From positions 8,997-72,996 of the forward strand of contig CAYSKO010000007.1 in the NCBI GenBank assembly GCA_964431835.1: a DNA stretch of 64,000 bases. Direction: 5' to 3'. The notes under the pieces were generated by a model. That model made no database searches and was not told the origin of the DNA. It saw only the letters and a list, made by a program, of their open reading frames with translations. This document shows, one piece after another, positions 29,471 to 64,000 of this stretch. The DNA is from an uncultured Planctomycetia bacterium. GTDB taxonomy: Bacteria; Omnitrophota; Gorgyraeia; 2-02-FULL-51-18. Position 1 is the stretch's first letter. Every line of letters begins with the position of its first letter. A program made the position numbers and the translations under genes.

Positions 29471-29560
29471 GGAAGGGTGTTTCGTTTATTCGATGCAGCA
29501 GAAACGTGGCATACAAGACAATGTTGTTTCCGCGTAATCGAAGAAACGAAACACCCTTCC
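29471..29560. repeat. Imperfect 24-bp inverted repeat (GGAAGGGTGTTTCGTTTATTCGAT / ATCGAAGAAACGAAACACCCTTCC, 23/24 complementary) separated by 42 bp; an AT-rich seam inside the polysaccharide cluster
   Basis: Arms at 29471-29494 and 29537-29560, read directly. Confidence 0.7.
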
Positions 29561-49017: not shown

Positions 49018-49022
49018 GACCG

Positions 49023-50420
49023 ATGAAACCGAAAGTTCTTTTTTGCGCGAGTGAAGTTGCGCCGTTCGCGAAGACCGGCGGGCTCGCCGATGTCGCCGGG
49101 TCCCTGCCACAGGCGCTGGGCAAGCTCGGCGTCGAAATGCTCGTGACCATGCCGCGCTACCGCGGTGTTCCCGAAGGGGAGCAAGCGATCGCCCCGGGCG
49201 TGCGTGTACGCTTCGTGGAGCACGAAGAATACTTCAACCGCTCGGCGCTCTACGGCAACGAGCTCGGCGACTACGCGGACAACCTCGAGCGCTTCGCGTT
49301 TTTCTGCAACCGCTCACTCGAAATCGCCAAGGAAACCGGTTTCCGCCCCGACGTCGTCCACGCGCACGACTGGCAGACCGCGCTCCTTCCCGTGTTCCTC
49401 AAGACGCGCTTGGCTCAGGATCCGTTCTTCGCCCGGACGAAAACGCTCTACACGATCCACAACCTGGCGTACCAGGGCGTGTTCGCCTCGAAACATTTTC
49501 CCGAGCTCGGCCTCGATCCGGCGCTCTTCAACATGGACGGCCTCGAGTTCTACGGCAAAATCAATCTCATGAAAGGTGGGCTTCTCTACGCGGACGCGGT
49601 CTCGACCGTGAGCCCAACGTACGCGCGCGAGATTCAGTCGAACGAGTTTGGCTGCGGCCTGGAAGGCGTGACCCGCCGCCGGGCGGAAGCCCTGCGGGGA
49701 ATTTTGAACGGCCTCGACTACGCGCACTGGGACCCGTCGGCCGACCCGGACATCGCCGAAGCCTACTCGGCCTCGAAACCGGCGGGGAAGACGGCCTGCA
49801 AGGCCGATCTCCAGCGCACGTGCGGCCTCGAAGAGAATCCGGCTGCGCCGGTGTTTGGCATCGTTTCGCGCCTCGCCGACCAAAAAGGTCTCGACCTTCT
49901 TTCGGACGTCTGCGATAAAATTTTGAAGGCGGGCGCGCAGTTCGTACTCCTGGGCGACGGCGACCCCGCGTACCGCACGACCTATAAAAACGTCGCCGCG
50001 CGGCACCCCCGGAAGGCGAGCGTCACTATTGGTTTCAGCGGCCCGCTGTCCCGCAAGATCTACGCGGGCTCGGACTTCTTCCTGATGCCCTCTTATTTCG
50101 AGCCCTGCGGCCTAGGGCAGCTGATCAGCCTGCGGTATGGCACTCTACCCATTGTTCGCGAAACAGGCGGCTTGGCGGACACTATCACCGACGCCGACAA
50201 GAACGACGAAACGGGCAACGGATTCTCTTTCAAAGAGCGCACACCCGACGCGCTCTGGAAGGCGTGCGAGCGCGCCCTCCGGTGCTGGGCCGATAAAAAG
50301 CGCATGGCGCTTCTGGTAAAGCGCGCGATGAAGGCCGATTTCTCGTGGAAGCGCTCGGCCGCGGAATACCGGGATTTTTATTCGTCGATGCTTGGCCGGC
50401 CGGCCGCGGAGGCCGCGTGA
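49023..50420 (+). CDS. glgA: Glycogen synthase (ADP-glucose type, GT5)
   Basis: N-terminal SEVAPFAKTGGLADV (KTGGL motif) and GT-B blocks. Confidence 0.9.
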   Translation: MKPKVLFCASEVAPFAKTGGLADVAGSLPQALGKLGVEMLVTMPRYRGVPEGEQAIAPGVRVRFVEHEEYFNRSALYGNELGDYADNLERFAFFCNRSLEIAKETGFRPDVVHAHDWQTALLPVFLKTRLAQDPFFARTKTLYTIHNLAYQGVFASKHFPELGLDPALFNMDGLEFYGKINLMKGGLLYADAVSTVSPTYAREIQSNEFGCGLEGVTRRRAEALRGILNGLDYAHWDPSADPDIAEAYSASKPAGKTACKADLQRTCGLEENPAAPVFGIVSRLADQKGLDLLSDVCDKILKAGAQFVLLGDGDPAYRTTYKNVAARHPRKASVTIGFSGPLSRKIYAGSDFFLMPSYFEPCGLGQLISLRYGTLPIVRETGGLADTITDADKNDETGNGFSFKERTPDALWKACERALRCWADKKRMALLVKRAMKADFSWKRSAAEYRDFYSSMLGRPAAEAA

Positions 50421-51022
50421 TCGTCGTCGGAGTCACAGGCTCGTTCGCATCGGGCAAAAGCGCGGCCACGACCCTCTTTAAAAAACAGGGCGCGGTGGTG
50501 TTCGACGCCGACGTCTCGGCACGGGGCGCTCTCGAGAAGGGTAAACCGGCCTACAGGGCCGTCGTGAAGCTCTTCGGCGGGAAGATCCTCGGCAAGAACG
50601 GGCAGATCGACCGCGCGGCCCTCGCCAAGCGCGTTTTCTCGAACCCGAAAGAGCTTAAAACGCTCGGCATCCTGGTTCATCCGGCCGTCATCATGGACGC
50701 GCTCGAAATCATGGACCGGACGAAGAAAAAGAAGGGTATACTCGTTCTCGACGTGCCCCTCCTTTTCGAATCGAAGATGGACAATCTCGCGGATTTCACG
50801 GTGCTCGTGAAAGCCCCGGCCAAAGCGACCCTCGCGCGCGCCTCGCAGCGCGGCGTGGACGCGGCCCTCGCGAAGAAGATCCTCGCGGCGCAGTGGCCGC
50901 CCGAGAAGAAGGCGAAGCTCGCGGATTACGTGATCGAGAACGCGAGCACCCTCGCGGACCTCGAGAAAAAAGTAAAAGAAACGGCCGCGAAAATCCGCGA
51001 AGCCGCCGCAAGTTTAGGTTAA
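50417..51022 (+). CDS. coaE: Dephospho-CoA kinase
   Basis: P-loop VGVTGSFASGKS and family length. GTGA overlap with glgA. Confidence 0.85.
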   Translation: MIVVGVTGSFASGKSAATTLFKKQGAVVFDADVSARGALEKGKPAYRAVVKLFGGKILGKNGQIDRAALAKRVFSNPKELKTLGILVHPAVIMDALEIMDRTKKKKGILVLDVPLLFESKMDNLADFTVLVKAPAKATLARASQRGVDAALAKKILAAQWPPEKKAKLADYVIENASTLADLEKKVKETAAKIREAAASLG

Positions 51023-51046
51023 CTAAAAAGGAGAGAAAGAAATAAG

Positions 51047-52309
51047 ATGGACATCGATCTGGCGAAACTCAAGAAAATGAAGATGCCCGAGCTGAACCAG
51101 CTGGCACACGAGATGAAGGTGGACGGCGTGAGCGGGCTGAAGAAGCAGGACCTCATCTTCAAGATCCTGCAGGCCCAGCCCCAGCAGTCGACGGGCGGCG
51201 TGATGACGGGCGAAGGCGTGCTCGAAATCCTGCAGGACGGCTTCGGCTTCCTGCGTTCGCCGAATTACAACTACCTCCCGTGCCCGGACGATATTTACGT
51301 CTCTCCGTCGCAGATCCGGAAGTTCAACCTGCGTACCGGCGACACGGTTTCCGGCCAGATCCGTCCCCCGAAAGAGGGAGAGCGCTACTTCGCGCTTCTC
51401 ATGGTGAACAAGGTCAATCTCGAGGAGCCTCACGAGGGCCGCGACAAGATTCTGTTCGACAACCTGACGCCTCTTTACCCGCACGAGAAGTGGAATCTGG
51501 AAGTCGCGCAGGCGGAAGTCTCGACGCGCATCCTGGACCTTCTCGCTCCGATCGGCAAGGGCCAGCGCGCGCTCATCGTGGCGCCGCCGTACAGCGGTAA
51601 AACCGTGCTCATGCAGAAGATCGCGAACGCGGTGACCTCGAACCATCCCGACGCCGTCCTCATCGTCCTCCTCATCGACGAACGTCCGGAAGAAGTCACG
51701 GACATGCAGAGGAACGTGAAGGGCGAGGTCGTCTCGTCCACGTTCGACGAACCGGCCGAGCGCCACGTGCAGGTCGCCGAAATGGTCATCGAGAAGGCCA
51801 AGCGCCTCGTCGAATCGAAGAAGGACGTCATCATCCTCCTCGACTCGATCACGCGTCTGGCGCGCGCCTACAACACGACCGTGCCCCACTCGGGCAAGAT
51901 CCTGTCGGGCGGCGTGGATTCGAACGCGCTCCATAAACCGAAGCGTTTCTTCGGCGCCGCGCGCGCGGTCGAAGAAGGCGGATCCCTCACGATCATCGCG
52001 ACCGCGCTCGTCGACACCGGCTCGCGCATGGACGAAGTCATCTTCGAAGAGTTCAAGGGCACGGGCAATTCGGAAGTCCAGCTCGACCGCAATCTCTTCC
52101 AGCGCCGCATCTATCCGGCCATCGACATCAAGAAGTCGAACACGCGCCGCGAGGAACTGCTGGTCGAGAAGGACGATTTGGCGAAGATCTGGATCCTCCG
52201 CAAAGTCCTGAACGAGCTGAATTCGTCCGAAGCGATGGAGCTCCTCATCGAAAAGGTGTCCAAGGCCAAAACGAATAAAGACTTCCTGAAAAGTATGAAT
52301 CGTGCTTAA
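51047..52309 (+). CDS. rho: Transcription termination factor Rho
   Basis: N-terminal RNA-binding domain ([14 protein letters not shown]) and the RecA-like ATPase (Walker A PPYSGKT). Confidence 0.95.
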
Positions 52310-52340
52310 ATAGGCGACCTAAAGGGAGAATCAAAGCGCC

Positions 52341-52544
52341 ATGAAAGAGAAGATCCACCCCAAGTACCATGAAACGACCATCACCTGCCTCTGCGGGAAC
52401 GTGATCCACACGCGCTCCACCAAGCAGAATATCCGCGTCGAAATCTGCGCAAGCTGCCACCCGTTCTTCACCGGCAAGCAGAAGTTCCTCGACACGGCCG
52501 GCCGCATCGAGAAGTTCGAGAAGCGGTACAAGAAGAAGGCTTAG
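52341..52544 (+). CDS. rpmE: 50S ribosomal protein L31 (zinc-ribbon type)
   Basis: MKEKIHPKY...CxxC...CxxCHPFFTG, family signature. Confidence 0.9.
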
Positions 52545-52554
52545 GTCACTTTAA

Positions 52555-52622
52555 CCGGACTCCGTCCGAGGGCGAGCGCCGCAACCCGGCGCAGACCTGA
52601 ACGCGGGGTCCGGTTTTTTATT
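52555..52622 (+). terminator. Rho-independent terminator after rpmE (10-bp outer stem with an internal GCGCCG/CGGCGC sub-stem, then TTTTTTATTT)
   Basis: Read directly. Confidence 0.5.
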
Positions 52623-52633
52623 TCCCCGCCCCC

Positions 52634-53692
52634 ATGCGATTCCTGAGGAAAGCCGAAGAGAAAGAGAAACGCTACGAAGAGGTGAAGAGCCTCCTCGAGG
52701 ACCCCGCCATCGGCGGCGACCCGACGAAAGTCCGCGACCTCGGCAAGGAATACCGGCAGCTCCAGAAGATCCACGAGCTCTATTCCGAGCACAAGAAACT
52801 CGAAGCGGAAACCGAAGGCGCCCGCAAAATGGCCGGCGATAAATCCCATCCCGAAATGATGGAGCTCGCCCAAGGGGAGCTCACCGAGCTCGAAGCGCAG
52901 ACCAAGAAAACCGTGAAGGATCTGGAAGCACTGCTCGTTCAGGACGACCCGGTGCTTCTCCGGAACGTCCTCCTCGAAATCCGCGCGGGAACTGGCGGGC
53001 TTGAAGCCGCGAGTTTCGCGGGCGAGGTGTTCCGCATGTACTCGCGCTTCTCCCAGAAGAACGGTTTCAAGGTGGAGGTCCTTTCCTCTTCCCCCGGAGA
53101 CGCTGGCGGCTTCAAGGAAATCATCGCGAACGTGATTGGCGAAGGCGCGTACGGCCGCTTCAAGTTCGAAAGCGGCACGCACCGCGTCCAGCGCGTCCCG
53201 GCCACCGAGGCTCAAGGGAGAATCCACACGTCGGCCATCACCGTCGCGGTCCTTCCCGAAGCCGAGGAGGTCGACGTGGAAATCAGGACCGAGGATTTAA
53301 AAATCGACGTTTTCCGCTCGGGCGGCCCCGGCGGGCAGTCGGTGAATACCACCGACTCGGCCGTCCGCATCACGCATCTGCCGTCCGGCCTCGTCGTCTC
53401 GTGCCAGGACGAAAAGTCCCAGCTTAAAAACAAACAGAAGGGCCTGAAGGTCCTGCGCGCGCGCCTTTTCGACAAGATCACGAGCGAGCGGAACGCCGAA
53501 ATCGCCAAGCAGCGCAAACAGCAGGTCGGCTCGGGCGACCGCTCCGAAAAAATTCGCACCTACAACTTTCCCGATCGCCGCGTGACCGACCACCGCGTGG
53601 GTCTTACGCAGTACAATCTCGAAGCCGTCATGCAGGGCGAGATCGAGCCGTTCATCGAAGCGCTCTACGAAGACGAATTCGAGAAGTCTTGA
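52634..53692 (+). CDS. prfA: Peptide chain release factor 1
   Basis: GGQ motif (SGGPGGQSVNTTDSAVR) and the PxT-type decoding region. Confidence 0.95.
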   Translation: MRFLRKAEEKEKRYEEVKSLLEDPAIGGDPTKVRDLGKEYRQLQKIHELYSEHKKLEAETEGARKMAGDKSHPEMMELAQGELTELEAQTKKTVKDLEALLVQDDPVLLRNVLLEIRAGTGGLEAASFAGEVFRMYSRFSQKNGFKVEVLSSSPGDAGGFKEIIANVIGEGAYGRFKFESGTHRVQRVPATEAQGRIHTSAITVAVLPEAEEVDVEIRTEDLKIDVFRSGGPGGQSVNTTDSAVRITHLPSGLVVSCQDEKSQLKNKQKGLKVLRARLFDKITSERNAEIAKQRKQQVGSGDRSEKIRTYNFPDRRVTDHRVGLTQYNLEAVMQGEIEPFIEALYEDEFEKS

Positions 53693-54564
53693 GCGAAGCG
53701 GCCCGGGAGAATCTCGCGCTCCTTAAAAATGTAGAGAAAGCGCTCGCAAAGGGCCGCGTGGTTTCCGCGGCGGCGGAGGCCGAGATCCTCGTGCGGCATT
53801 ACGCGAAGCTCGGAAGGGTCGATTTCTTCGCGGGGAGCCGGAACGTGCCGCCTGCGGCCCGGAAAAAAATCGAGAAGGCCGTCGCGAAGCGCGTGAAGGG
53901 GATTCCGCTCGGGCAAATCCTGGGGGAAGCCGATTTTTACGGCCGGACGTTCGCCGTCGACCGGCATGTTCTCGTCCCGCGGCCCGAAACCGAGGTCCTC
54001 GTCGAGGAGACCTTGAAGGCGCTCACGGAAACGGGCCTCCGGGCCCCGGAAACGCTCGATTTATGCACGGGCTCGGGGTGCATCGCCGTTTCGTTGACTT
54101 TGGAGCGTCCCGATTGTAAAATGACCGCTCTCGACGTCTCTCCCAAGGCGCTTCGCATCGCCCGTAAGAACGTGGAGAAACACGGGTTACGGAAAAAGGT
54201 CCGGTTCTTGAAGGGGGACCTTTTCGAAGCGTTCGGCAAGGGAAAGAAAGCTTTTTGGGACGTCATCGTCTCGAATCCGCCTTACATCCCCCGAAACGAG
54301 CTCAAGAAACTGCCGCGCGAAGTGCGCCGCGAACCGCGCGTCGCGCTGGACGGCGGCGAAGCCGGACTCAACGTGATCCGGAAAATTTTGGACGAAGCGC
54401 CGCGTTATCTCAAGGCTCCTGGGCGGCTTCTCCTCGAGATCGGCAAGGGCCAGTCGCGCGCTCTCGCGAAAGATCTCGCGCGGCGGCCGGAATATTCGGA
54501 TTGGAAGTTCGTCAAAGACCACACGGGCATCGAGCGCATTCTGACGGTGAGAGTAAATGGATAA
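53689..54564 (+). CDS. prmC: Release factor glutamine N5-methyltransferase PrmC (HemK)
   Basis: SAM-binding LDLCTGSG and the NPPY motif (IVSNPPYI). ATGA overlap with prfA. Confidence 0.9.
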   Translation: MSEAARENLALLKNVEKALAKGRVVSAAAEAEILVRHYAKLGRVDFFAGSRNVPPAARKKIEKAVAKRVKGIPLGQILGEADFYGRTFAVDRHVLVPRPETEVLVEETLKALTETGLRAPETLDLCTGSGCIAVSLTLERPDCKMTALDVSPKALRIARKNVEKHGLRKKVRFLKGDLFEAFGKGKKAFWDVIVSNPPYIPRNELKKLPREVRREPRVALDGGEAGLNVIRKILDEAPRYLKAPGRLLLEIGKGQSRALAKDLARRPEYSDWKFVKDHTGIERILTVRVNG

Positions 54565-55828
54565 ATTGGTCATCGAGGGCGGCAAACGCCTCGAGGGAAC
54601 GGTGAGCGTGAGCGGCGCGAAGAACGCGTCGCTTCCGATCCTCGCCGCCACCGTCCTCACGAAGGAAAAATCCGTCGTGAAGAACGTGCCCGAAGTCGCG
54701 GACATCTTCACGATGGTGAAGATCCTGAAAACGATGGGCGCGAAGGTTTCGTTCGAGAAGAACGTGGTCCAGGTCGATCCGTCGGGCATCAAGAATCCGG
54801 TGCTGACGTACAAGATCGTCTCCACGATGCGCGGCTCGATCTGCTTCCTTGGGCCGCTCCTGGCGCGCTTCAACGAAGCCACCGTGTCTTTCCCGGGCGG
54901 CTGCGTCATCGGCCCACGCCCGATCGATCTCCACATCAAGGGCGTGCGCGCGCTCGGCGCGGAAGTGACGCTCGAAAAAGGTTACGTCACCGCGAAAGCG
55001 AAGAACGGTCTCAAGGGCGCACGGATCTTCCTCGGCGGCGCCTTCGGTTCGTCGGTGCTCGGCACGGGCAACGTCATGATGGCGGCCACGACGGCGAAGG
55101 GAAAGACCGTCATCGACAACGCGGCCTGCGAGCCGGAAGTCGTGGATCTCGGCAATTTTTTGAAGAAGATGGGCGCGAAGATCGAGGGGCTCGGCTCGCC
55201 CTCCATCGAAGTGGAAGGCGTGAAGAGCCTTAAGGGCGCCGTCCACTCCGTCATTTCGGACCGCATTGAAGCCGGCACGTACATGATCGGCTCGGCGATG
55301 ACGAAGGGCGACGTGACGCTCACCAATTTCGATCTTTCGATGATGGGCGCCATGCTCGACAAGCTCCGCGAAGCCGGCGTGAACGTAACCGAGAAAAACG
55401 GCCACGTGCGCGTGCGCCGCGAGCGCATCCTCCGGCCCGTGTCGGTGACGACGCTCCCGTATCCCGGCTACCCGACGGATCTCCAGGCGCAGATGATGGC
55501 GCTCATGTGCGTGGTGCCCGGCATCAGCGTGATCACCGAAAAAATTTACCCCGAGCGCTTCATGCACGTCGCCGAACTCAACCGCATGGGCGCGTCCATC
55601 ATGCTCGAGGGCCCGTCGGCGATCGTTAGCGGCAAGAAGAAGCTTTCGGGCGCGCCGGTCATGGCGTCCGATCTTCGCGCGTCGGCCGCGCTCGTCCTCG
55701 CCGGCCTCGTGGCCGAAGGGGAAACCGAAGTGCGTCGCATTTATCACCTCGACCGCGGTTACGAGCGGCTCGTGGACAAGCTGGGCTCGCTCGGCGCCAA
55801 AGTGCGCCGCGAGAAAGATTACAACTAG
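54557..55828 (+). CDS. murA: UDP-N-acetylglucosamine 1-carboxyvinyltransferase MurA
   Basis: MDKLVIEGG...VSGAKNA N-terminus, the catalytic Cys loop and a 423-aa length. Confidence 0.95.
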   Translation: MDKLVIEGGKRLEGTVSVSGAKNASLPILAATVLTKEKSVVKNVPEVADIFTMVKILKTMGAKVSFEKNVVQVDPSGIKNPVLTYKIVSTMRGSICFLGPLLARFNEATVSFPGGCVIGPRPIDLHIKGVRALGAEVTLEKGYVTAKAKNGLKGARIFLGGAFGSSVLGTGNVMMAATTAKGKTVIDNAACEPEVVDLGNFLKKMGAKIEGLGSPSIEVEGVKSLKGAVHSVISDRIEAGTYMIGSAMTKGDVTLTNFDLSMMGAMLDKLREAGVNVTEKNGHVRVRRERILRPVSVTTLPYPGYPTDLQAQMMALMCVVPGISVITEKIYPERFMHVAELNRMGASIMLEGPSAIVSGKKKLSGAPVMASDLRASAALVLAGLVAEGETEVRRIYHLDRGYERLVDKLGSLGAKVRREKDYN

Positions 55829-55858
55829 AACCGAACAATCCCGGAAGGGGGTGAATGT

Positions 55859-56110
55859 ATGGCAGTCGTTATTCGTCTGAAATCGACCGGCACCAAGAAG
55901 AAGATCAAGCACCGCGTCGTCGTCACGGACTCGAAGTTCCCGCGCGACGGGCGTTTCCTCGAAGAAGTGGGTTATTGGGACCCTTCGAAGGAGCCCGCGG
56001 AAATGAAGATCAAGACGGACCGCGTGGAGTTTTGGATTTCCAAGGGCGCGAAGCCTTCGGACACCGTCCGCTCGATCCTCAAGAAGGTCGGAGTGAAGTA
56101 CGGTCAGTAA
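55859..56110 (+). CDS. rpsP: 30S ribosomal protein S16
   Basis: MAVVIRLKSTGTKKK...DGRFLEEVGYWDP family signature. Confidence 0.9.
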   Translation: MAVVIRLKSTGTKKKIKHRVVVTDSKFPRDGRFLEEVGYWDPSKEPAEMKIKTDRVEFWISKGAKPSDTVRSILKKVGVKYGQ

Positions 56111-56128
56111 GGACAGGAAAGAAAAGCC

Positions 56129-56911
56129 GTGAAGGTCGTCGTCCTCACGCTCTTTCCCGGCATGTTCGAGTCGTTTCTTTCGCACTCGATCATGAAACGG
56201 GCTTTGGCGGCGGGCACGGTCAGCGTAAACGCGGTCGATATCCGCGATTACGCCCACGACAAGCACCGGACGGTGGATGACCGTCCGTTCGGCGGCGGCC
56301 CGGGCATGCTGATGAAGCCCGAGCCGATCTTCGAAGCGGTCGATGCGCTCTTCGGAAAGCGTCCCAAGAAGAAAGGGCGCCGGTTCGTTTACATGAGCCC
56401 ACAGGGGAAACGGCTGGATCATGCGACGGCGGCCGGCCTGGCGAAGGCGGACGAACTGGTGGTGCTCTGCGGCCACTACGAGGGCGTGGACGAACGCGTG
56501 GTCGAGGCGTTCGTCACCGACGAAGTCTCCATCGGCGACTACGTCCTGACCGGCGGGGAACTGCCGGCCATGGTTTTGATCGACACGGTCACCCGGCTGA
56601 TCCCAGGGGTGCTCGGCAGGGAGGAATCGAAGGAATTTGAATCTTTTTGCGGGAATCTGCTAGAATACCCGCAATATACGAGGCCCGCCGTTTATCGCGG
56701 CAAGCAGGTCCCCCCGGTGCTCCTCTCGGGAAACCACAAGGCGATCGAGGGTTGGAGGAAGGAAGAGGCGCTCAAGCGTACGCGCGAGAGAAGGCCGGAT
56801 CTCCTTCACGGGGAAGAAGTTACGGTTAGTTCCAAGAAGGTAAAAGGAGAAGGTCATGCATCCGCTGTTGAAGGCGCTCGAAGCCGAGCAAATCAAAAAA
56901 GACATCCCTAA
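56129..56911 (+). CDS. trmD: tRNA (guanine37-N1)-methyltransferase TrmD (with a roughly 20-aa C-terminal extension overlapping rplS)
   Basis: SPOUT-knot blocks ([36 protein letters not shown]). Confidence 0.9.
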
Positions 56912-57236
56912 GTTCCGCGTGGGCGACACGATCAAGGTGTCGGTGAAGGTCGAAGAAGGCGATAAGACCCGCACACAGACCTTCGAAGGCACTGTCATGA
57001 AGAGGCAGGGTTCGGGTATCCGTGAAAGTTTCACGGTGCGCCGCACTTCTTTCGGCGAGGGCGTCGAGAGGGGTTTCCCGGTCCATAGCCCGAACGTGCA
57101 GAAGATCGAGCTCGTCCGCTCCGGCAAAGTGCGCCGCGCGAAGCTGTATTATCTCAGAGATCAGAAGGGTAAGAGAGGCAAGATTGAGGAAGAGCGCAGG
57201 CGCGAAGAGGCGGTTCCGACTCCTCCTTCGGCATGA
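56856..57236 (+). CDS. rplS: 50S ribosomal protein L19
   Basis: FRVGDTIKV...ESFTVRR family signature. SD AAAGGAGAAGG. Confidence 0.9.
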
Positions 57237-57888
57237 CGCGGATTTCCTGAACCGGGGTTTCCTGTCCCTGGCGGGCGTAGACGAGGTCGGTAGGGGTCCC
57301 CTTGCGGGACCGGTAGTGGCCTCGGCTGTGATCGTCAGGGACGCTTCATTTTCGTGCGCCATCGACGACTCCAAAAAGTTGTCGCCCGCATCCCGGGAAG
57401 TGGCGTACAGGGAAATCCTTCAGAAAGCCCACGTCGCCGTAAGCGTGAAGGATCATACGGTGGTCGACGAGCTCAATATCTTTTGGGCGTCGATGGCCGC
57501 GATGAAGGACGCCGTGCGCCGCTTGCCTTCCACCCCCGATTACGTGATCGTGGACGGCAACCACGTCCCCGATTTCGAGCAAGACAAAGACGTCCGCCGC
57601 GCCGCCCTCGTGAAGGGCGACTCCAAATCCCTCGCGATCGCCTGCGCCTCCATCGTCGCGAAAGTGACCCGCGACCGCATCATGGAAGAGTACGACAAAG
57701 TTTATCCCCAGTACGGCTTCAAATCCCACAAAGGCTACTGCACGCGCGAGCACGTCACCGCACTCCTCGCGCATGGCCCGACCCCGATCCACCGCCGCAG
57801 CTTCGAACCCGTGAAATCCCTCGTCGAAGGCCGCTCCCCGGGCCTCCGAATGAAAGATTGCCAGCCCCGCGGCTCCAATTTAGAATAG
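57184..57888 (+). CDS. rnhB: Ribonuclease HII
   Basis: [16 protein letters not shown] motif and the DDSK and DGN catalytic residues. The start is uncertain (TTG 57184 after the SD-like GAGAGG); it overlaps the rplS 3' end. Confidence 0.75.
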
Positions 57889-57894
57889 ACCTCC

Positions 57895-59433
57895 ATGGAA
57901 ACCCTTTTAATCATCGACTTCGGTTCCCAGTACAACCAGCTCATCGCCCGCCGGGTGCGCGAGTCGAAGGTGTACTGCGAGATCGTTCCGCCCACGATCA
58001 CCGCCGACCAGATCCGCGCCAAAGGGAACGTAAAGGGGATCATCCTTTCCGGCGGCCCGGCGAGCGTGTACTTAAAGAACGCGCCTCAGCTCGACGCGGG
58101 CTATCTCGAGCTCGGCCTTCCGATCTTCGGCATTTGCTACGGCATGCAGGCCCTTTCGCATCTTTTGGGTGGCAAGGTCTGCCGCGCGGAAGAGAAAGAA
58201 TTCGGCCGCGCCGATCTTTTCGTGAAAAGCTCCGGCGGCTCGCTCTTTAAGGGCGTCCCCCGGAAGTCTATTTCCTGGATGAGCCACGGCGATTACGTTT
58301 CGATCATGCCGAAAGGCTTCCAGACCACTGCCTTTACGAAGAACACCAAAGTCGCCGCATTCGAGAACGACGCGAAGAAGATCTACGGCGTCCAGTTCCA
58401 CCCCGAGGTCGCGCACTCCGAGCACGGTAAGAAGGTGATCGAGAACTTCATTAAGGTCTGCGGTTTCAAGAAGTCGTGGACGATGGAGAACTTCATCAAG
58501 GAGAAGACCCGCGAGATCAAGGAGAAGGTCGGGACCGACCACGTGATCCTCGGCCTCTCGGGCGGCGTGGATAGCTCCGTCGCCGCCGCGCTCATGGCGA
58601 AGGCGCTCGGGAAGCAGCTCACCTGCATTTTCGTGAACAACGGCCTGCTAAGGAAGAACGAGGTCGAGTACGTCCGCCAGGCATTCGCCGGCAAATTCAA
58701 TTTCAATCTCGACATCGTGGACGCCGAGAAGCATTTCCTCACCGCGCTGAAAGGCGTCACGGACCCGGAGAAGAAACGCAAGGTCATCGGCCACGAGTTC
58801 ATCTACGCCTTCGACCGCGAAGCGAAGAAAATCAAGAACGCGAAGTGGCTCGGGCAGGGGACGCTGTACCCCGACGTGATCGAGAGTAAGTCCGCCTTCG
58901 GCGGCCCCACCGCCGTCATCAAGAGCCACCACAACGTGGGCGGCCTCCCTGAGAAGATGAAGCTCAAGCTCATCGAGCCCCTCCGCGAGCTTTTCAAAGA
59001 CGAGGTCCGCGAGCTCGGGAAATCGCTCGGCCTCCCGAAAGAGCTCGTATGGCGCCACCCGTTCCCGGGCCCCGGCCTGGCCGTGCGCGTCTTGGGAGAA
59101 GTCACGAAGGAACGCTGCGACATTTTAAGGGAAGCCGACCACCGCTTCCTGGAAGAACTCCACAAGAGCGGCCTCTACACGAAGATCTGGCAAGCCTTCG
59201 CCGTCCTCCTCCCGGTCCGCTCCGTGGGCGTCATGGGCGACGAACGCACCTACGACAACGTCGTCGCCCTCCGCGCCGTCACCAGCGTCGACGGCATGAC
59301 CGCGGACTGGTTCGATATGCCGAAGGAAGTTTTGGGAAAAGTTTCTAACAGAATCATTAACGAAGTCAAAGGCGTGAACCGCGTCTGCTACGACGTGTCT
59401 AGTAAACCCCCGGCGACTATTGAATGGGAATGA
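57895..59433 (+). CDS. guaA: GMP synthase (glutamine-hydrolysing)
   Basis: GATase catalytic Cys (GICYGMQ) and the PP-loop SGGVDSSV. 512 aa. Confidence 0.95.
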
Positions 59434-59475
59434 GAAGGTAAGCATGAACCGCTTAACCGATAGGGTACGACATGG

Positions 59476-59503
59476 AGCTCAGCATCAGCTGAGTATTTTT
59501 TTT
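59476..59503 (+). terminator. Short hairpin (AGCTCAGC-atca-GCTGAGT) plus T9 run directly after guaA; the likely guaA terminator and the left border of the low-GC islet
   Basis: Read directly. Confidence 0.45.
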
Positions 59504-60137
59504 GAGCTTTTTTAAAAAAGAGAAATACCAAGACCCTTCCTTCCCTCCGCTTTTAGATAACGAAATTGAATTTATAAAAAAACTCGACGTAGATTCCGCG
59601 ACTCGATTCATTGAGACGCATGGAAAAAATAAATCCGCTGATGCCAAAGAGCATATCAGGGAAGCAAATCAATTCGAATTCGATATTTGCAATCTTTTAC
59701 TCAAAGGAGCAGGCGCGGCTTTTACATTATATTTTGCTTTGATCGCATATCTGAAGATAACGCCTTCATTTGTACCATTAATTCTTTGGGCTACTTCTGC
59801 GTATTTAGGCATGCTTCATCAGAAGAAATGGTCTCGGAGATTGTTGGGCATTGGTAAAAGAGAAAACTTAATTTCCATGGAAGCGGCACTTCAAATTTTC
59901 AAGCACAACGATGATAGATGTAAGTTCGTGATGCAGGTATTGAAAGAGCAGTTTTTGTACTTAAGCCGCATAACGGCGAAGCAGAGATTAAATCAAGCAG
60001 ACTATAAGTATGTTGTAGTATTCACAGAACTTCCTTTTTTTCTCATAAATTTACAGATTATTTTAGTTATCCTAGGAATTTTTATCGCCGCAACTCAATT
60101 ATTTCCCAACTCAGTAAGCTTAAATGTTGCTAGTTAG
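59502..60137 (+). CDS. Hypothetical membrane protein (two hydrophobic regions flanking a soluble middle segment), low-GC
   Basis: Open frame of 211 codons with an AT-rich composition. The only start is TTG inside the terminator T-run, so the true start may be an internal ATG. No recognisable domain. Confidence 0.35.
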   Translation: MSFFKKEKYQDPSFPPLLDNEIEFIKKLDVDSATRFIETHGKNKSADAKEHIREANQFEFDICNLLLKGAGAAFTLYFALIAYLKITPSFVPLILWATSAYLGMLHQKKWSRRLLGIGKRENLISMEAALQIFKHNDDRCKFVMQVLKEQFLYLSRITAKQRLNQADYKYVVVFTELPFFLINLQIILVILGIFIAATQLFPNSVSLNVAS

Positions 60138-60190
60138 TCGGCCTTAAAACAAAGTCCTGACAACGTCCTTTAAGCAAAAGAAACTGAACG

Positions 60191-60502
60191 ATGAGTGATT
60201 CGTACTCTGTTCTCGGTCTGAAGCCCGGCGCTTCGAAGGATGAGATTCGAGAGGCGTATCGCGATCTCGTGAAGGTTTGGCATCCGGATCGCTTCGCGCA
60301 CGATCCCGTTTTCCAGAAAAAGGCGCAGGAGAATCTCAAACAGATAAACAAGGCGTACGAGGAGCTTTCGAACGGGACGCAGAATCGAGCCGCGTGCGAG
60401 CGGAGCGTCCGCGTGAAAAAGCATCCCCTTCGTCTTCTGCGGGGAGCGCGAGGACTAGCGCCTCAGCCCATGCGTCGAAGCCGCGCGCGAAAGCTTCTGT
60501 GA
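60191..60502 (+). CDS. J-domain (DnaJ-like) protein
   Basis: YSVLGLKPGASKDEIREAYRDLVKVWHPDRF with the HPD motif. The Arg-rich C-terminus may be low-complexity. Confidence 0.7.
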   Translation: MSDSYSVLGLKPGASKDEIREAYRDLVKVWHPDRFAHDPVFQKKAQENLKQINKAYEELSNGTQNRAACERSVRVKKHPLRLLRGARGLAPQPMRRSRARKLL

Positions 60503-60723
60503 TGTCTTCTCAAAAATGCCATTTCGGCGGTTTGGCGCTCATGTGGACACTCTTTGGGCTTTTGGAACTCGGCGCGGTCGGTGTCTATCAAAGCTCGCCG
60601 CCAGCTCCGTCTACGAACGCTGAGGTGGCTCCCTGGACGGAAGTAGATCCGAAGTCGATCCGGCTCGAAGGGCTCGGTCCGATATTGGTTATTTCACGCT
60701 CGGATCAACGAAAGAGAGAGTAA
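60502..60723 (+). CDS. Small single-TM protein translationally coupled to the J-domain gene (TGATG overlap)
   Basis: ATG at 60502 shares the A of the upstream TGA. A hydrophobic helix (HFGGLALMWTLFGLLELGAVGVY) follows. Alternatively it is the frameshifted C-terminus of the J-domain protein. Confidence 0.35.
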   Translation: MSSQKCHFGGLALMWTLFGLLELGAVGVYQSSPPAPSTNAEVAPWTEVDPKSIRLEGLGPILVISRSDQRKRE

Positions 60724-60887
60724 GAAGCGTACAGGGCACTCCCACTAGCATCGTTGGTAACATGTGGTTGTATGGGTTCGATCACGTCTCCTTCGACTCA
60801 AGTGGAAAGGTCGTGGGGTACCGTAATGACTCCGGAAAGCTTAGAGTGCGATGATCGAAGCATCAACGGAGCGAGAAGGCATCTTCC

Positions 60888-60936
60888 CATACCGGACGTC
60901 GTCCCGACCGACCTTTCGGGACGTCGTCCCAAAACC
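60888..60936. repeat. 49-bp direct repeat, copy 1 (CATACCGGACGTCGTCCCGACCGACCTTTCGGGACGTCGTCCCAAAACC), with an internal 7-bp-stem hairpin
   Basis: Identical at 49/49 to the copy at 61536-61584. Confidence 0.85.
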
Positions 60937-61016
60937 CGGGGATACACAACAACTTATAGGAAGTCATCATCCGAACAGACCGGGCGCCGTCTGAGAAGTA
61001 ATTATCGGGGATCAAA

Positions 61017-61496
61017 ATGAAACGACCCATTCCGCTCGTTATGTCCTTCCTCTTGCTTGCTGGCTGCGCCACGATGAGCAGTCTTCCTAAGACTGCAAAC
61101 GACGTCAATTTCGATTCGAAAGAGGGGAAGACGGGCTGGTCCAAATATGAGGAGACGTTCTTCTTCAGGGGTGTGGACAAGCGCACGACGTACCTGGCGG
61201 CAAAGTCCGGGCTTTCGGACGCGGAATTCACCGTGACACAAGCGGATTTCGAGAAGGGATACGCCAAGGGTAAGCACGGCATGACGGCTTACGACTGGAA
61301 CATCGTGGCGGGCGTGTACGTCAAAGAGATAGAGGGTGGCACTCAGGTGAAGATCGTAGTGGAAGGCTCTAAGGACATCGGCTTCATGGGTGACATGACA
61401 GACCAAAGCTGGCCTCAGAAAATTTACAAGGGTATGCGGGACTACGTCCAAGGCGAGTCCTCCATAACGGATCCGAATAAGAAGATCTTTCAATGA
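61017..61496 (+). CDS. Hypothetical lipoprotein (signal peptide MKRPIPLVMSFLLLAGC with lipobox LAGC)
   Basis: Lipobox read directly. 159 aa, bracketed by the 49-bp direct repeats. No recognised domain. Confidence 0.55.
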   Translation: MKRPIPLVMSFLLLAGCATMSSLPKTANDVNFDSKEGKTGWSKYEETFFFRGVDKRTTYLAAKSGLSDAEFTVTQADFEKGYAKGKHGMTAYDWNIVAGVYVKEIEGGTQVKIVVEGSKDIGFMGDMTDQSWPQKIYKGMRDYVQGESSITDPNKKIFQ

Positions 61497-61535
61497 CGAA
61501 TACGGGAAAGACTGTAAATCATCGTCTTGATACTT

Positions 61536-61584
61536 CATACCGGACGTCGTCCCGACCGACCTTTCGGGACGTCGTCCCAAAACC
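61536..61584. repeat. 49-bp direct repeat, copy 2 (identical to 60888-60936)
   Basis: Read directly. Confidence 0.85.
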
Positions 61585-61663
61585 GGATGGATCGGCCCTT
61601 CATTCTGAAAGAGGCGTAAACAATCGCCTTAAATTAACGCTGTTGCCGACTCCGATTCCAGTC

Positions 61664-62332
61664 TCAGAGCGCGTTACTTTTTCCTATATTACAAACGGAG
61701 CAAAGGGTCCTTAGATTTTCAGTCATTGTCGCTCCACCTTTTGACCATGGCTTGATATGGTCAACATGCAAAACAACCGCCGGATCTTTCGCAGGGCTTG
61801 CACCACACATCTTGCAAATACAGTTATCTCGGATCAAAACCATAGCTCTAAGACGCCAATTGATCTTCCTTGGCCACTTTCCATGATTTATTTTAGAATT
61901 TCCGATGTTAGGGGCCACCTCCATCATCTCGGAATTATTCACAAAATCCCCGAATGCTTGCAGAGCCTTGTTCCAGGATCCAAATCGTTTTTCATAAGTG
62001 CCTAGCGCAAATTTTGAAAGACCCGCGGTTTTTTCCATATCTGACCCTACGGGCTGTCTTCCAAGCTTTTGCCAAACATCGGCTAAATTGCCGAACAACG
62101 TCTCTTCCTTGTTATTCGACGTCAGAACAATTCTTAATCCGGCCACCTCTAGCGCTGTATTCCATGCGCCAAATCGTCTAAGAATTGTGGTCTTTCCAAA
62201 TCTGCCCTTTTCATCATAGGCGGCTGCCGTTAAGGTTGTCTGTCCCATGGATTCCGCGACCCTTCGAATGTCGGCCGCCAACTCCTTATTTGGAATATTT
62301 CGCCTTCTAAGGTTAATTTCAAATTTTTTCAT
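61664..62332 (-). CDS. HNH endonuclease with two N-terminal homing-endonuclease-associated repeats
   Basis: HNH motif (HVDHIKPWSKGG...NLRTLCSVCN) and CxxC pairs. Two RFG(S/A)WN(K/T)AL repeat units are typical of HNH-associated repeats. Confidence 0.8.
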   Translation of the reverse strand: MKKFEINLRRRNIPNKELAADIRRVAESMGQTTLTAAAYDEKGRFGKTTILRRFGAWNTALEVAGLRIVLTSNNKEETLFGNLADVWQKLGRQPVGSDMEKTAGLSKFALGTYEKRFGSWNKALQAFGDFVNNSEMMEVAPNIGNSKINHGKWPRKINWRLRAMVLIRDNCICKMCGASPAKDPAVVLHVDHIKPWSKGGATMTENLRTLCSVCNIGKSNAL

Positions 62333-62336
62333 ACGC

Positions 62337-62792
62337 TCAATCCAAAAATGGCTCTATCCATTTTCTAAATAACTTTAACGCATCCGCCGGCACCACAATC
62401 GGGAAATCAACAAGCGCGTCCACGCCATGCGCCATGAAGTCGCGCGTGTTCCAGGTGACAAATGCGGATACTTTTGCCAAATGCGCCGAGCAAAGGATGG
62501 AGGCATCTCCCTTATCTAATTTGTGTAGAAATCGTTTTGCTTGAGTAGCCGTGGGTTCGGGTGCGATTTCCGGAGCGAGGGCTTTTAAAAGTTCGCGGCT
62601 TTTCTCAACCCGAATAGGAAACTTTTTGGATAAGACGCGGTCTATTTCTATAATAACCTCTTCCGAGACAACCATACTGATCGCGCCACCTTCTACGAGA
62701 CGGATAAGCTCTCCCGCCGCACCTTCCGGAGAAAGCAAAGCCGCTATGTAGGTGCTTGTATCAAAGAAGATGCGGTATCTCGGTATGGCCAT
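62337..62792 (-). CDS. vapC: PIN-domain toxin (VapC-like ribonuclease)
   Basis: N-terminal IFFDTS acidic motif and PIN fold conserved acidic residues. It lies immediately downstream of an AbrB-type antitoxin. Confidence 0.8.
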   Translation of the reverse strand: MAIPRYRIFFDTSTYIAALLSPEGAAGELIRLVEGGAISMVVSEEVIIEIDRVLSKKFPIRVEKSRELLKALAPEIAPEPTATQAKRFLHKLDKGDASILCSAHLAKVSAFVTWNTRDFMAHGVDALVDFPIVVPADALKLFRKWIEPFLD

Positions 62793-63038
62793 TTATGAAC
62801 TTTTGCTGTGGCGAATCTTTTTCAGATCCTTTAAAAGCTCATCCAGCGTGATACCTTTCTCTTTGGATTCTTTCACAAACCCCGCTGATGTAGTTTTAAA
62901 TGTAGAGAGCCCTGGGGTAATCAAAATCCCATTTCCCACTTTGGCTACGGACAAAACAGAGTCCTTCGAAAGATGAAGTGACTCCCTGATGCCTGATGGG
63001 ATCGTCACCTGTCCTTTTTCCCTCATTTTGGTTACCAT
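62793..63038 (-). CDS. vapB: AbrB/MazE/SpoVT-type antitoxin (VapB-like)
   Basis: Swapped-hairpin motif (KGQVTIPSGIRESLHL). ATG with SD GGAG, and its stop abuts the vapC start. The track ORF extends further upstream, but the 81-aa form fits the family. Confidence 0.75.
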   Translation of the reverse strand: MVTKMREKGQVTIPSGIRESLHLSKDSVLSVAKVGNGILITPGLSTFKTTSAGFVKESKEKGITLDELLKDLKKIRHSKSS

Positions 63039-63080
63039 TCTTCTTCTCCTATTTTCATACTGATTCCTACTTTCTAACAA

Positions 63081-63109
63081 AGTGTACCACAGATAGGGGT
63101 GGAATTCAA
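63081..63109 (-). promoter_or_regulatory. Candidate promoter for vapB-vapC-HNH on the minus strand: TTGAAT-17 nt-TACACT
   Basis: Reverse complement read directly. It lies about 45 nt upstream of the vapB ATG. Confidence 0.3.
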
Positions 63110-63458
63110 ATAGCAAACCCCTCTGTGCCAATGTGATCGCAAAAGCGGAGGCGTTACTCCCCGTGACACCCTATTTGCAAAACCGGGCCGCGTCGTTCAA
63201 CATAGGAGCTCTGGCGACCCCAGCCGTGCGCCTCTGCGCACGGCACTCCGGAGGCGGCTGTATAAGGGGTCAAGTCTTTCCCTGACTGCATCTGACGCGT
63301 ATCTATCGCAACGCCGTCGAATATCCGAATCCCATGCGACAAGCTTCTTGAAACGAAAGCAGCTTGAGACGATGGTCCTGTAGGACCCCATAAAATTACT
63401 TGTAGGGCCGATGGTGCAAATAATCTTTGAGTTTATTGTTTGTTTCACTGGACGCGCA

Positions 63459-64000
63459 TCAAATAAATATTTTTATTTTATGTTTTCTAGATCGCAACGC
63501 CATAAAAAAACTATAAGCCAAAGTTAAAATAGTTACAGGCAAAACAAATAATAGCGTGGTTCGACCGAATATCGGCAATAGATCGTGGGCTTGAGCGTTC
63601 AGGATCAAATAGATGATATAGAAAAAATAGTAGGCTAAAAAAATAAACCCTTCCCAGCGTGCAATCAGCCGCCCAGTTAAAAATATCGGCAAGCAAGCAA
63701 ACGCGACCGCGATCATGAACGGTAGATCAAAACCGATGAGGGATCGCGCGACGGGGACAGATCCAGCTCCGGACAACAGACCTGTCAGGCCTCCGACACC
63801 TAAAATATTGAATATGTTGCTACCGATGACATTCCCGATTGCAATATCCTTTTCTCCTTTAAGCGTTGCGACGACTGACGTGAAGATCTCCGGAAACGCT
63901 GTCCCTGCCGCGATGATCGTCAGCGAGATCACTAGATCGCTAACCCCGTACGCCTTAGCAATGGCTACAGCTCCCAATATCAGTCTATTGGACCCGAAAA
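63459..64000 (-). CDS. CaCA-family cation/calcium antiporter (YrbG-like), C-terminal half; the gene continues beyond the window end
   Basis: Alpha-2 repeat motif (GNVIGSNIFNIL) and multiple TM helices. AT-rich composition unlike the core genome. Confidence 0.7.
   Translation of the reverse strand, partial: FGSNRLILGAVAIAKAYGVSDLVISLTIIAAGTAFPEIFTSVVATLKGEKDIAIGNVIGSNIFNILGVGGLTGLLSGAGSVPVARSLIGFDLPFMIAVAFACLPIFLTGRLIARWEGFIFLAYYFFYIIYLILNAQAHDLLPIFGRTTLLFVLPVTILTLAYSFFMALRSRKHKIKIFI

Follow-up and report, generated by a model that had tools for sequence, protein, structure and literature searches.

Downstream of guaA in an Omnitrophota-like bacterium, a single lipoprotein gene is enclosed by two 49-bp copies of a hairpin-forming sequence, designated R (copies R1 and R2), and this arrangement may be the footprint of a ~648-bp one-gene module that was inserted by reciprocal recombination, either homologous or site-specific, at a resident copy of R. 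This reading is preferred, at a confidence short of even, because the copies are perfect, sharp-edged and in the same orientation, and because they surround one self-contained gene within a mosaic island. The window referred to throughout is the whole stretch of DNA that was analysed, 64 kb in length, and the features of its accessory end are given in Table 1.

Table 1. Features of the locus (coordinates are those of the window)
Feature	Position	Strand	Description
Low-GC mosaic accessory region	59434-64000	.	38-56% GC, as against 62% in the core; holds the whole of R-gene-R
guaA terminator	59477-59494		Canonical hairpin followed by T8
Neighbour A, J-domain gene	60191-60854	+	Split over three reading frames
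Repeat copy R1	60888-60936	+	49 bp; 36-bp core at 60894-60929
Interior segment B	60937-61535	+	599 bp, 51% GC
Lipoprotein gene	61017-61496	+	159 aa; lipobox LLAGC; GGGGA ribosome-binding site
Repeat copy R2	61536-61584	+	Same sequence and orientation as R1; core at 61542-61577
Neighbour C, HNH endonuclease gene	61664-62332	-	Homing-endonuclease-associated repeats
PIN toxin gene	62337-62792		Next beyond the HNH gene
AbrB/MazE antitoxin gene	62793-63131		Next beyond the PIN toxin gene

The 49-mer CATACCGGACGTCGTCCCGACCGACCTTTCGGGACGTCGTCCCAAAACC occurs exactly twice in the 64-kb window, on the plus strand and in direct orientation, with 0 mismatches between the copies and a start-to-start distance of 648 bp. 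No third copy is present in the window at three mismatches or fewer, and the chance expectation, based on 100 shuffles, is 0 copies. The two perfect 49-bp direct repeats reported in the preliminary description of this DNA are therefore confirmed, both of their junctions being found in independent contigs as well (see below). The perfect identity had also been taken to imply a recent event; a recent origin of the duplication is plausible on comparing the two copies and is not forced by that comparison, since 0 differences over 49 bp limit R1-R2 divergence only loosely (< ~6% at 95% confidence). Because the flanks of R1 and R2, compared over 150 nt on each side, are unalignable, the repeat is sharp-edged, and the idea that R is part of a longer duplication was rejected, there being no similarity across the flanks. 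Partial copies of R above the level of chance k-mers are absent from the borders of the island, and there is no target-site duplication in the bases that flank R1 and R2. R1 is separated by 33 nt from the stop codon of the decayed J-domain gene to its left (60852-60854) and by 80 nt from the lipoprotein ATG to its right; for R2, the corresponding distances are 39 nt, from the stop codon of the lipoprotein gene, and 79 nt, from that of the convergent HNH gene.

Each copy is built around a 14-8-14 core, GGACGTCGTCCCGA / CCGACCTT / TCGGGACGTCGTCC, in which two 14-nt arms (GGACGTCGTCCCGA and TCGGGACGTCGTCC), 93% complementary with one T.T mismatch, enclose an asymmetric spacer of 8 nt (CCGACCTT); the 49-bp identity reaches 6-7 nt past the dyad on either side. 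A 7-bp inverted repeat had been described earlier and is indeed present, but it underestimates the arms, which extend to the full 14 nt once the single mismatch is allowed. When folded, R gives a 13-pair stem that is uninterrupted apart from the T.T mismatch and has 0 bulges, with energies of -25.5 to -29.9 kcal/mol for 66-nt RNA stretches containing R, and of -14.4 and -15.6 kcal/mol (z = -3.6 and -3.9) for the two strands of the 49-mer folded as single-stranded DNA. The 'half-site' GGACG-T-CGTCC is itself an 11-nt palindrome and is for that reason seen as both a direct and an inverted repeat, and the second arm extends into a near-palindrome of 21 nt. A T-run is absent next to R on both strands (the tails being CCAAAACC on the plus strand and GGTATG on the minus strand), R is not called in a terminator scan, and no promoter-like site was found in or adjoining it. 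The possibility that R is a canonical Rho-independent terminator was rejected, given that there is no U-tract on either strand.

The lipoprotein gene is the sole gene between R1 and R2 and it is complete, in agreement with the earlier observation that the repeats flank exactly one lipobox lipoprotein gene. The interior segment consists of an 80-nt leader with a GGGGA Shine-Dalgarno sequence, the lipoprotein ORF and a 39-nt tail, and together with one R it amounts to 648 bp, the length of the putative module. R has a GC content of 63%, close to the 62% of the host core, and the contrast with the 51% of the interior bears out the description of a GC-rich repeat and a GC-poor cassette, albeit that 'GC-poor' is merely relative here. 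The GC content left of, between and right of the repeats is 56%, 51% and 45%, respectively, which counts in favour of an insertion. Homologues of the lipoprotein span 100% of the 159-aa form, and the family comprises at least 176 relatives, with identities of 41-71% (46-71% among the matches listed) and with 32 invariant positions. There is no significant match to Pfam, PHROGs or NCBIfam (one NCBIfam match is sub-threshold and attributed to chance), and the family is tightly conserved and without an entry in these three databases. The predicted fold is of the alpha+beta type (model pLDDT 85), with weak matches (TM 0.35-0.49) to helix-grip and BamC N-terminal domains. A role in phage superinfection exclusion or in envelope modification may be speculated upon.

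The accessory region begins immediately 3' of guaA and the guaA terminator. The first 59 kb of the window, by comparison, have a GC content of 62%, and the 30 ORFs screened in this part are housekeeping genes without exception, almost all on the plus strand. To the left of R1, neighbour A encodes a J domain followed by a transmembrane-like segment and a C-terminal part that is BamE-like by eye; its sequence is identical in an independent contig (L053, below), and the gene is probably a pseudogene. In addition to the HNH and toxin-antitoxin genes listed in Table 1, the island holds a gene for a 211-aa membrane protein without a family and a half-size Na/Ca-exchanger ORF. No tRNA or tmRNA genes that might serve as att targets are present in the window, and no recombinase gene was recognized among the 38 ORFs screened in it (no Phage_integrase, intI, Y1/RAYT or TnpA/TnpB). 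As to the identity of the host, the nearest guaA has 80% amino acid identity and is labelled Eisenbacteria, and the best matches named Omnitrophica or Omnitrophota are at 72-74%; the host is accordingly an uncultivated bacterium that probably belongs to Omnitrophota and has no close relative in the databases. Exact-protein matches led only to the same locus (L053-L056).

Two contigs from the JGI metagenome 3300015360 are informative on the structure of the locus. Contig L053 (Ga0163144_10008398) corresponds to window positions 47895-61535 at 99.96% identity (6 SNPs) and carries A-R1-B unbroken, and contig L054 corresponds to positions 63426-61413 at 100% identity and carries B-R2-C unbroken. 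Both repeat junctions are thus confirmed by independent metagenome contigs. An assembly artefact, the product of a looped or wrongly joined de Bruijn graph, might be suspected from the fact that contigs of other assemblies break at or beside R; however, contigs from an independent sample, overlapping by 123 nt, span A-R1-B and B-R2-C, each copy having unique sequence to its left and right, and an artefact is extremely improbable. The end of L053, at 61535, immediately precedes R2, and L053 shares exactly 123 nt (61413-61535) with L054, an overlap that would correspond to a vertex at which a graph with k = 123 branches, both the assembler and the value of k being deduced from the length of the overlap. 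A further contig, L055 (Logan, SRR6448209), stops 30 nt into R1. With an assumed k of 31, this is where a graph would be expected to break if R has two left contexts, an outcome in keeping with an insertion. On the other side of the balance, an empty allele (A-R-C) or a circle or tandem form (B-R-B) would give rise to branching at 60936 and 61584, where the two copies of R end on the right, and no break occurs at these edges, L053 crossing 60936 and L054 crossing 61584; neither an empty-site allele nor a circle junction was seen in the contigs. Both observations count against an insertion. Because L053 stops before R2 while the contigs cross the right edges of R unbroken, the sample 3300015360 seems to hold a variant at the end of B, in which that end is joined to non-R sequence, or else there is a divergence at 61412.

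Further evidence comes from the company that the lipoprotein family keeps elsewhere. In the seven homologue contexts that were fetched and compared by tblastx, the lipoprotein gene is the only gene shared with the window, as would befit an insertion. In Acinetobacter prophages, the gene has that for the tail assembly chaperone on one side and that for the tape measure protein on the other, and in Marinobacter it is found among small ORFs, toxin-antitoxin pairs and IS elements. Another homologue occurs in a Druantia-type defence island beside DruA- and NurA-like genes. Gene tables place three more among neighbours unrelated to those of the window, one ~0.9 kb from a tyrosine integrase, one in an island of Abi, methylase and primase genes, and one between large unannotated genes. 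Additionally, 11 viral contigs in IMG/VR carry the gene. To judge from these contexts, the lipoprotein gene is acquired alone and repeatedly, and its surroundings are consistently mobile, so that a one-gene insertion in the window becomes credible.

Flanking repeats were compared across the family by aligning the 300 nt upstream with the 300 nt downstream of the gene at 23 fetched loci and in the window; as many of the loci share a lineage, the independent contexts number about a dozen. In only two lineages, namely the window (49 nt) and the Acinetobacter prophage (14 nt), is the gene flanked by a direct repeat that is significant. The latter repeat, 14 nt perfect within a 27-nt match of 78%, occurs twice only in 16 kb and was equalled in 0 of 300 shuffles, and it speaks for an insertion; the two flanking repeats are unrelated in sequence. 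Bracketing of the family by duplicated local sequence has, by this comparison, happened at least twice. However, none of the five closest fetched homologues has an R-like hairpin nearby, a result that counts against an insertion of the kind proposed, and since no homologue context contains such a hairpin, R belongs to the window locus and does not travel with the gene. An attC site was sought at the Marinobacter locus (L061) in view of its layout of small ORFs and toxin-antitoxin pairs, and no convincing one was found there. Close relatives of the Acinetobacter prophage, sought for an empty site, were absent from the phage collection.

R itself was sought well beyond the locus. Among the 185,579 genomes of the GTDB representatives there is no exact copy of the hairpin, and a scan of the same set with the pattern GACGTCGTCCC N6-24 GGGACGTCGTC returned 52 matches, all of them attributable to chance in high-GC coding DNA and 0 of them with a hairpin. 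When JGI metagenome contigs were searched for the hairpin with its loop and mismatch positions left free, two matches were obtained and both were taken as chance, one being an ordinary terminator flanked by A and T and the other a perfect hairpin of similar kind on contig L058, which is AT-rich and unrelated. No copy of R was found in this JGI contig collection, an incomplete one that missed known contigs of sample 3300015360. IMG/VR gave no match to the hairpin or to either end of segment B, plasmids and phages gave none to the whole unit by blastn, and in Rfam R has only a sub-threshold chance match to a snoRNA. Finally, a six-frame translation of R, compared with the called ORFs of 5.8 billion protein clusters, yielded no match at E <= 10, a weak negative given that an exact 16-aa match may miss that limit.

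The proposed course of events would start from a single R in the convergent intergenic stretch between the J-domain and HNH genes of the island 3' of guaA. A circle of ~648 bp, in which the lipoprotein gene with a ribosome-binding site of its own is accompanied by a single R, would recombine reciprocally with the resident R and so produce R-gene-R in direct orientation; by the reverse exchange, R x R, the gene would be excised in circular form and a single R would remain. The crossover might be plain homologous recombination across the 49-bp identity, comparable to what generates the mini-circles of PeSLs (see below), or might be catalysed by a recombinase encoded elsewhere that acts on the lox-like 14-8-14 core. 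The homologous version presupposes that R is repeated in intergenic DNA elsewhere, which counts against it. In favour of the scheme, a core with 14-nt inverted arms and an 8-nt asymmetric spacer, present in two co-oriented copies, has the geometry of excision and integration; against it, the window contains no third R and no second cassette. The circular intermediate, the enzyme and the direction of the event (an insertion, and not the separate arrival of two R copies) are elements that we infer. The earlier suggestion of attL/attR-type recombination sites bracketing a mobile cassette fares well in respect of the sharp repeats, the one gene between them, the promiscuous family and the 14-8-14 core, whereas mobility, and with it an active cassette system, is conjectural, no recombinase having been found in the window. 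A more ambitious version of the insertion holds that R serves Omnitrophota-like bacteria as the recombination site of a minimal gene-cassette system independent of integrons, in which a recombinase encoded elsewhere would use the 36-bp core and would insert and excise single-gene circles, consisting of an ORF and a site, at hairpin sites of accessory islands; this version is distinctly doubtful.

Several other explanations merit consideration, among which is the possibility that R itself is mobile, as a REP- or MITE-like palindrome or a RAYT/IS200-type substrate that landed twice independently, with the gene lying between the landings by chance. R forms an imperfect palindrome, its short flanks are asymmetric and its edges sharp and element-like; it occupies intergenic positions 33-39 nt past stop codons, its GC content fits the host core and not its surroundings, and JGI contig L053 stops precisely at the left edge of R2. 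Like REPs and REPINs, it is GC-rich and placed downstream of genes. Yet REPs are dispersed, of high copy number and typically arranged as inverted pairs, whereas R exists as two direct copies 648 bp apart, the only ones in 64 kb and both within 650 bp. No copy or half-copy was found in the 59-kb core, which has dozens of intergenic regions, and a dispersed high-copy form of the REP-like element suggested in the preliminary description is not seen in the window. Also unfavourable are the absence of a Y1/RAYT transposase from the screened ORFs, the absence of copies from the collections scanned (GTDB, JGI, IMG/VR, plasmids and phages, the six-frame negative being weak) and the lack of a target-site duplication; a MITE was rejected on the last count despite the presence of inverted arms. 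Independent landings of a mobile R are, on the whole, somewhat unlikely. A related notion places R at both ends of a single-strand transposable element (IS200/IS605- or PATE-like) with the lipoprotein gene as a passenger, as two co-oriented hairpins with asymmetric flanks at the ends of a short segment could indicate. The ends of IS608/ISDra2-type elements are similar and not identical, whereas R1 and R2 agree at 49 of 49 positions; since, in addition, TnpA and TnpB are missing from the window and no other copy of such an element appeared in the collections scanned, an element of this type is very unlikely.

It is also conceivable that mobility plays no part, and that R is a local hairpin, whether an atypical terminator, a stem-loop that stabilizes mRNA or a pair of operators bound by a dimeric DNA-binding protein, that was copied by gene conversion or local duplication. 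The location of both copies directly 3' of plus-strand stop codons, the position of R2 between convergent genes, the strong stem and the operator-like quality of the 11-nt palindromic arms, the second of which grows into the 21-nt near-palindrome, are all compatible with such a function. However, R is without a T-run, whereas the nearby guaA has a hairpin with T8, its loop is 8 nt, nothing alike is found where other genes end in the island or window, and the identity covers the non-palindromic flanks and spacer, beyond what function alone would conserve. A hairpin copied locally is accordingly judged unlikely. The proposal made earlier that R resembles integron attC sites, here as a two-site array of the CALIN type, draws on a likeness to integron cassettes, in that a promoter-poor single ORF (a small cargo gene of unknown function) is followed by an imperfect palindromic site that is repeated on the other side. 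But R is without RYYYAAC/GTTRRRY (R''/R') boxes, the nearest 7-mers being CCAAAAC and GTTTTGG on the minus strand, and its 49 bp fall below the 57-141 bp range. Folding reveals one T.T mismatch only and no extrahelical bases; there are two sites only, no attI is present in the window, no intI is among its 38 screened ORFs, and in other genomes the gene is found without R. An attC identity is effectively refuted by these features of boxes, length, fold and missing intI, and a CALIN-type array is highly improbable.

Insertion of a one-gene module finds a documented and enzyme-independent parallel in the PeSLs (promoter-early stem-loops) of T4-type phages, near-identical stem-loop and promoter cassettes that flank accessory ORFs in a hypervariable region and whose recombination yields mini-circles of ~400-1400 bp consisting of an ORF plus one repeat, for which reinsertion at other copies has been proposed by the authors (PMC2839356). 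As with R, stem-loop repeats bracket a single small accessory ORF (Arbiol et al. 2010, PMC2839356; PMC4122927). PeSLs differ in being composite (terminator stem-loop, sigma-70 promoter and Shine-Dalgarno sequence), in having many copies per phage genome and in terminating transcription. At the locus in the window, by contrast, only the hairpin is repeated, the Shine-Dalgarno sequence lies outside the repeat, there is neither a T-run nor a detectable promoter, and the two copies are in an island of a bacterial chromosome. Phage morons, self-standing gene modules lodged between conserved phage genes, offer a further comparison, as the lipoprotein family is a lone insert in Acinetobacter prophages with its own terminator and a short flanking direct repeat; the R locus, however, is chromosomal with no recognizable prophage, and its repeat is of 49 rather than 14 nt and forms a hairpin. 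The simple sites of tyrosine recombinases, lox for Cre (13-8-13), FRT for Flp (13-8-13) and dif for Xer (11-6-11), together with Xer-dependent modules, provide another point of reference. R shares with them inverted arms (14 nt against 11-13 nt) around an asymmetric spacer of 6-8 nt, a likeness that is necessary and far from sufficient, and two such sites in direct orientation lead to excision of the interval as a circle. In contrast, R has no sequence similarity to dif, lox or FRT, its arms are themselves palindromic, its identity continues 6-7 nt past the dyad, and no recombinase is among the 38 ORFs screened in the window, so that a claim for a specific enzyme has no support.

We know of no described mobile elements for the candidate phylum Omnitrophota. 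At present, the case is confined to a single locus of a single uncultivated lineage, for which neither an enzyme nor a polymorphism was found, and it should be viewed as a candidate rather than a discovery. The lipoprotein family is possibly worth separate study in its own right, being conserved and present in prophages and defence islands of several phyla. If reversible one-gene insertion at R is true, it would be a tiny and clean instance of a gene that moves as a circle of 'ORF plus one site' without belonging to an integron or a phage, and it would suggest that one-gene modules use hairpin sites in accessory islands as docking points.

The 3' end of guaA is a hot spot for insertions in other bacteria. 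Here, guaA and its terminator are followed directly by a low-GC island of mosaic composition, which is seen up to the end of the window and has its distal end outside it. Within this island, the J-domain gene on the left of R1, the first of the two identical 49-bp hairpin repeats (R), is broken, its pieces following one another as the J domain, a TM-like segment and a C-terminal part that looks, by eye, like BamE. Because the sequence is the same in an independent contig, this is probably a genuine pseudogene rather than a sequencing error. In its place, the metagenome gene caller had put an antisense ORF. On the other side of R2, the second copy, the HNH endonuclease carries two homing-endonuclease-associated repeats and has its stop codon 79 nt from R2, and the Na/Ca-exchanger ORF beyond the toxin–antitoxin genes spans just one of the two usual domains; with an in-frame stop upstream of it, near the window end, this ORF may be truncated or split.

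Features of the accessory island, its homologue loci and the other hairpins
Feature	Location	Strand	Description
Accessory island	window 59434-64000		mosaic, low GC (38-56 %); starts directly after guaA and its terminator
guaA terminator	window 59477-59494		canonical, T8
J-domain gene	window 60191-60854		split across three reading frames
Lipoprotein gene	window 61017-61496		homologues at loci L059-L081
HNH endonuclease and PIN toxin/AbrB-MazE antitoxin pair	window 61664-63131	-	directly adjoining
Na/Ca-exchanger ORF	window 63459-63977	-	
Inverted repeat	window 29471-29560		35 nt, 86 % complementary, 20-nt loop
Acinetobacter prophage direct repeat	L065 7950-7976 and 8518-8544		example locus
Perfect hairpin	L058 (Ga0207433_10027675) 6478-6507		GGGACGTCGTCCCGA-TACT-TCGGGACGACGTCCC

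Two metagenome contigs from JGI sample 3300015360, L053 and L054, overlap by exactly 123 nt (window 61413-61535), and the last base of L053 is the base preceding R2. The exact overlap and this stop imply a graph branch at the boundary between R2 and the interior that holds the lipoprotein gene. Neither an empty-site allele, in which a single R joins the two flanks, nor a circle or tandem allele, in which R joins two copies of the interior, accounts for the branch.

As to other hairpins, the one in L058 has arms nearly identical to those of R; the contig that carries it is unrelated, very rich in AT and full of further hairpins, and approximately one match is expected by chance at the size of the search that gave it. 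The longest hairpin of the window is the inverted repeat in an intergenic gap of the core region, between two sugar-nucleotide genes.

The lipoprotein family is strongly conserved (32 invariant residues), and it has no significant match in Pfam, PHROGs or NCBIfam. In Acinetobacter prophages (L062-L066 and L068), the homologue has the tail assembly chaperone gene on one side and the tape measure gene on the other, and a direct repeat brackets it. The perfect 14-nt core of this repeat, AATTAGTATCTTGT, has just two occurrences in 16 kb, and the downstream copy of the repeat is preceded by a canonical terminator. In Marinobacter sp. LV10R520-4 (L061 4500-12000), the homologue sits in a row of small same-strand ORFs, together with RelB/YafQ and Phd/ParE pairs and IS elements; the region looks similar to a chromosomal cassette array, and inspection of it found no convincing attC sites. 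Across distant bacteria, homologues occur as a lone accessory gene within prophages, integrase-bearing islands and defence islands. The modelled fold has a weak similarity to helix-grip and BamC-N folds, and it may be speculated that the lipoprotein acts in superinfection exclusion or envelope modification.
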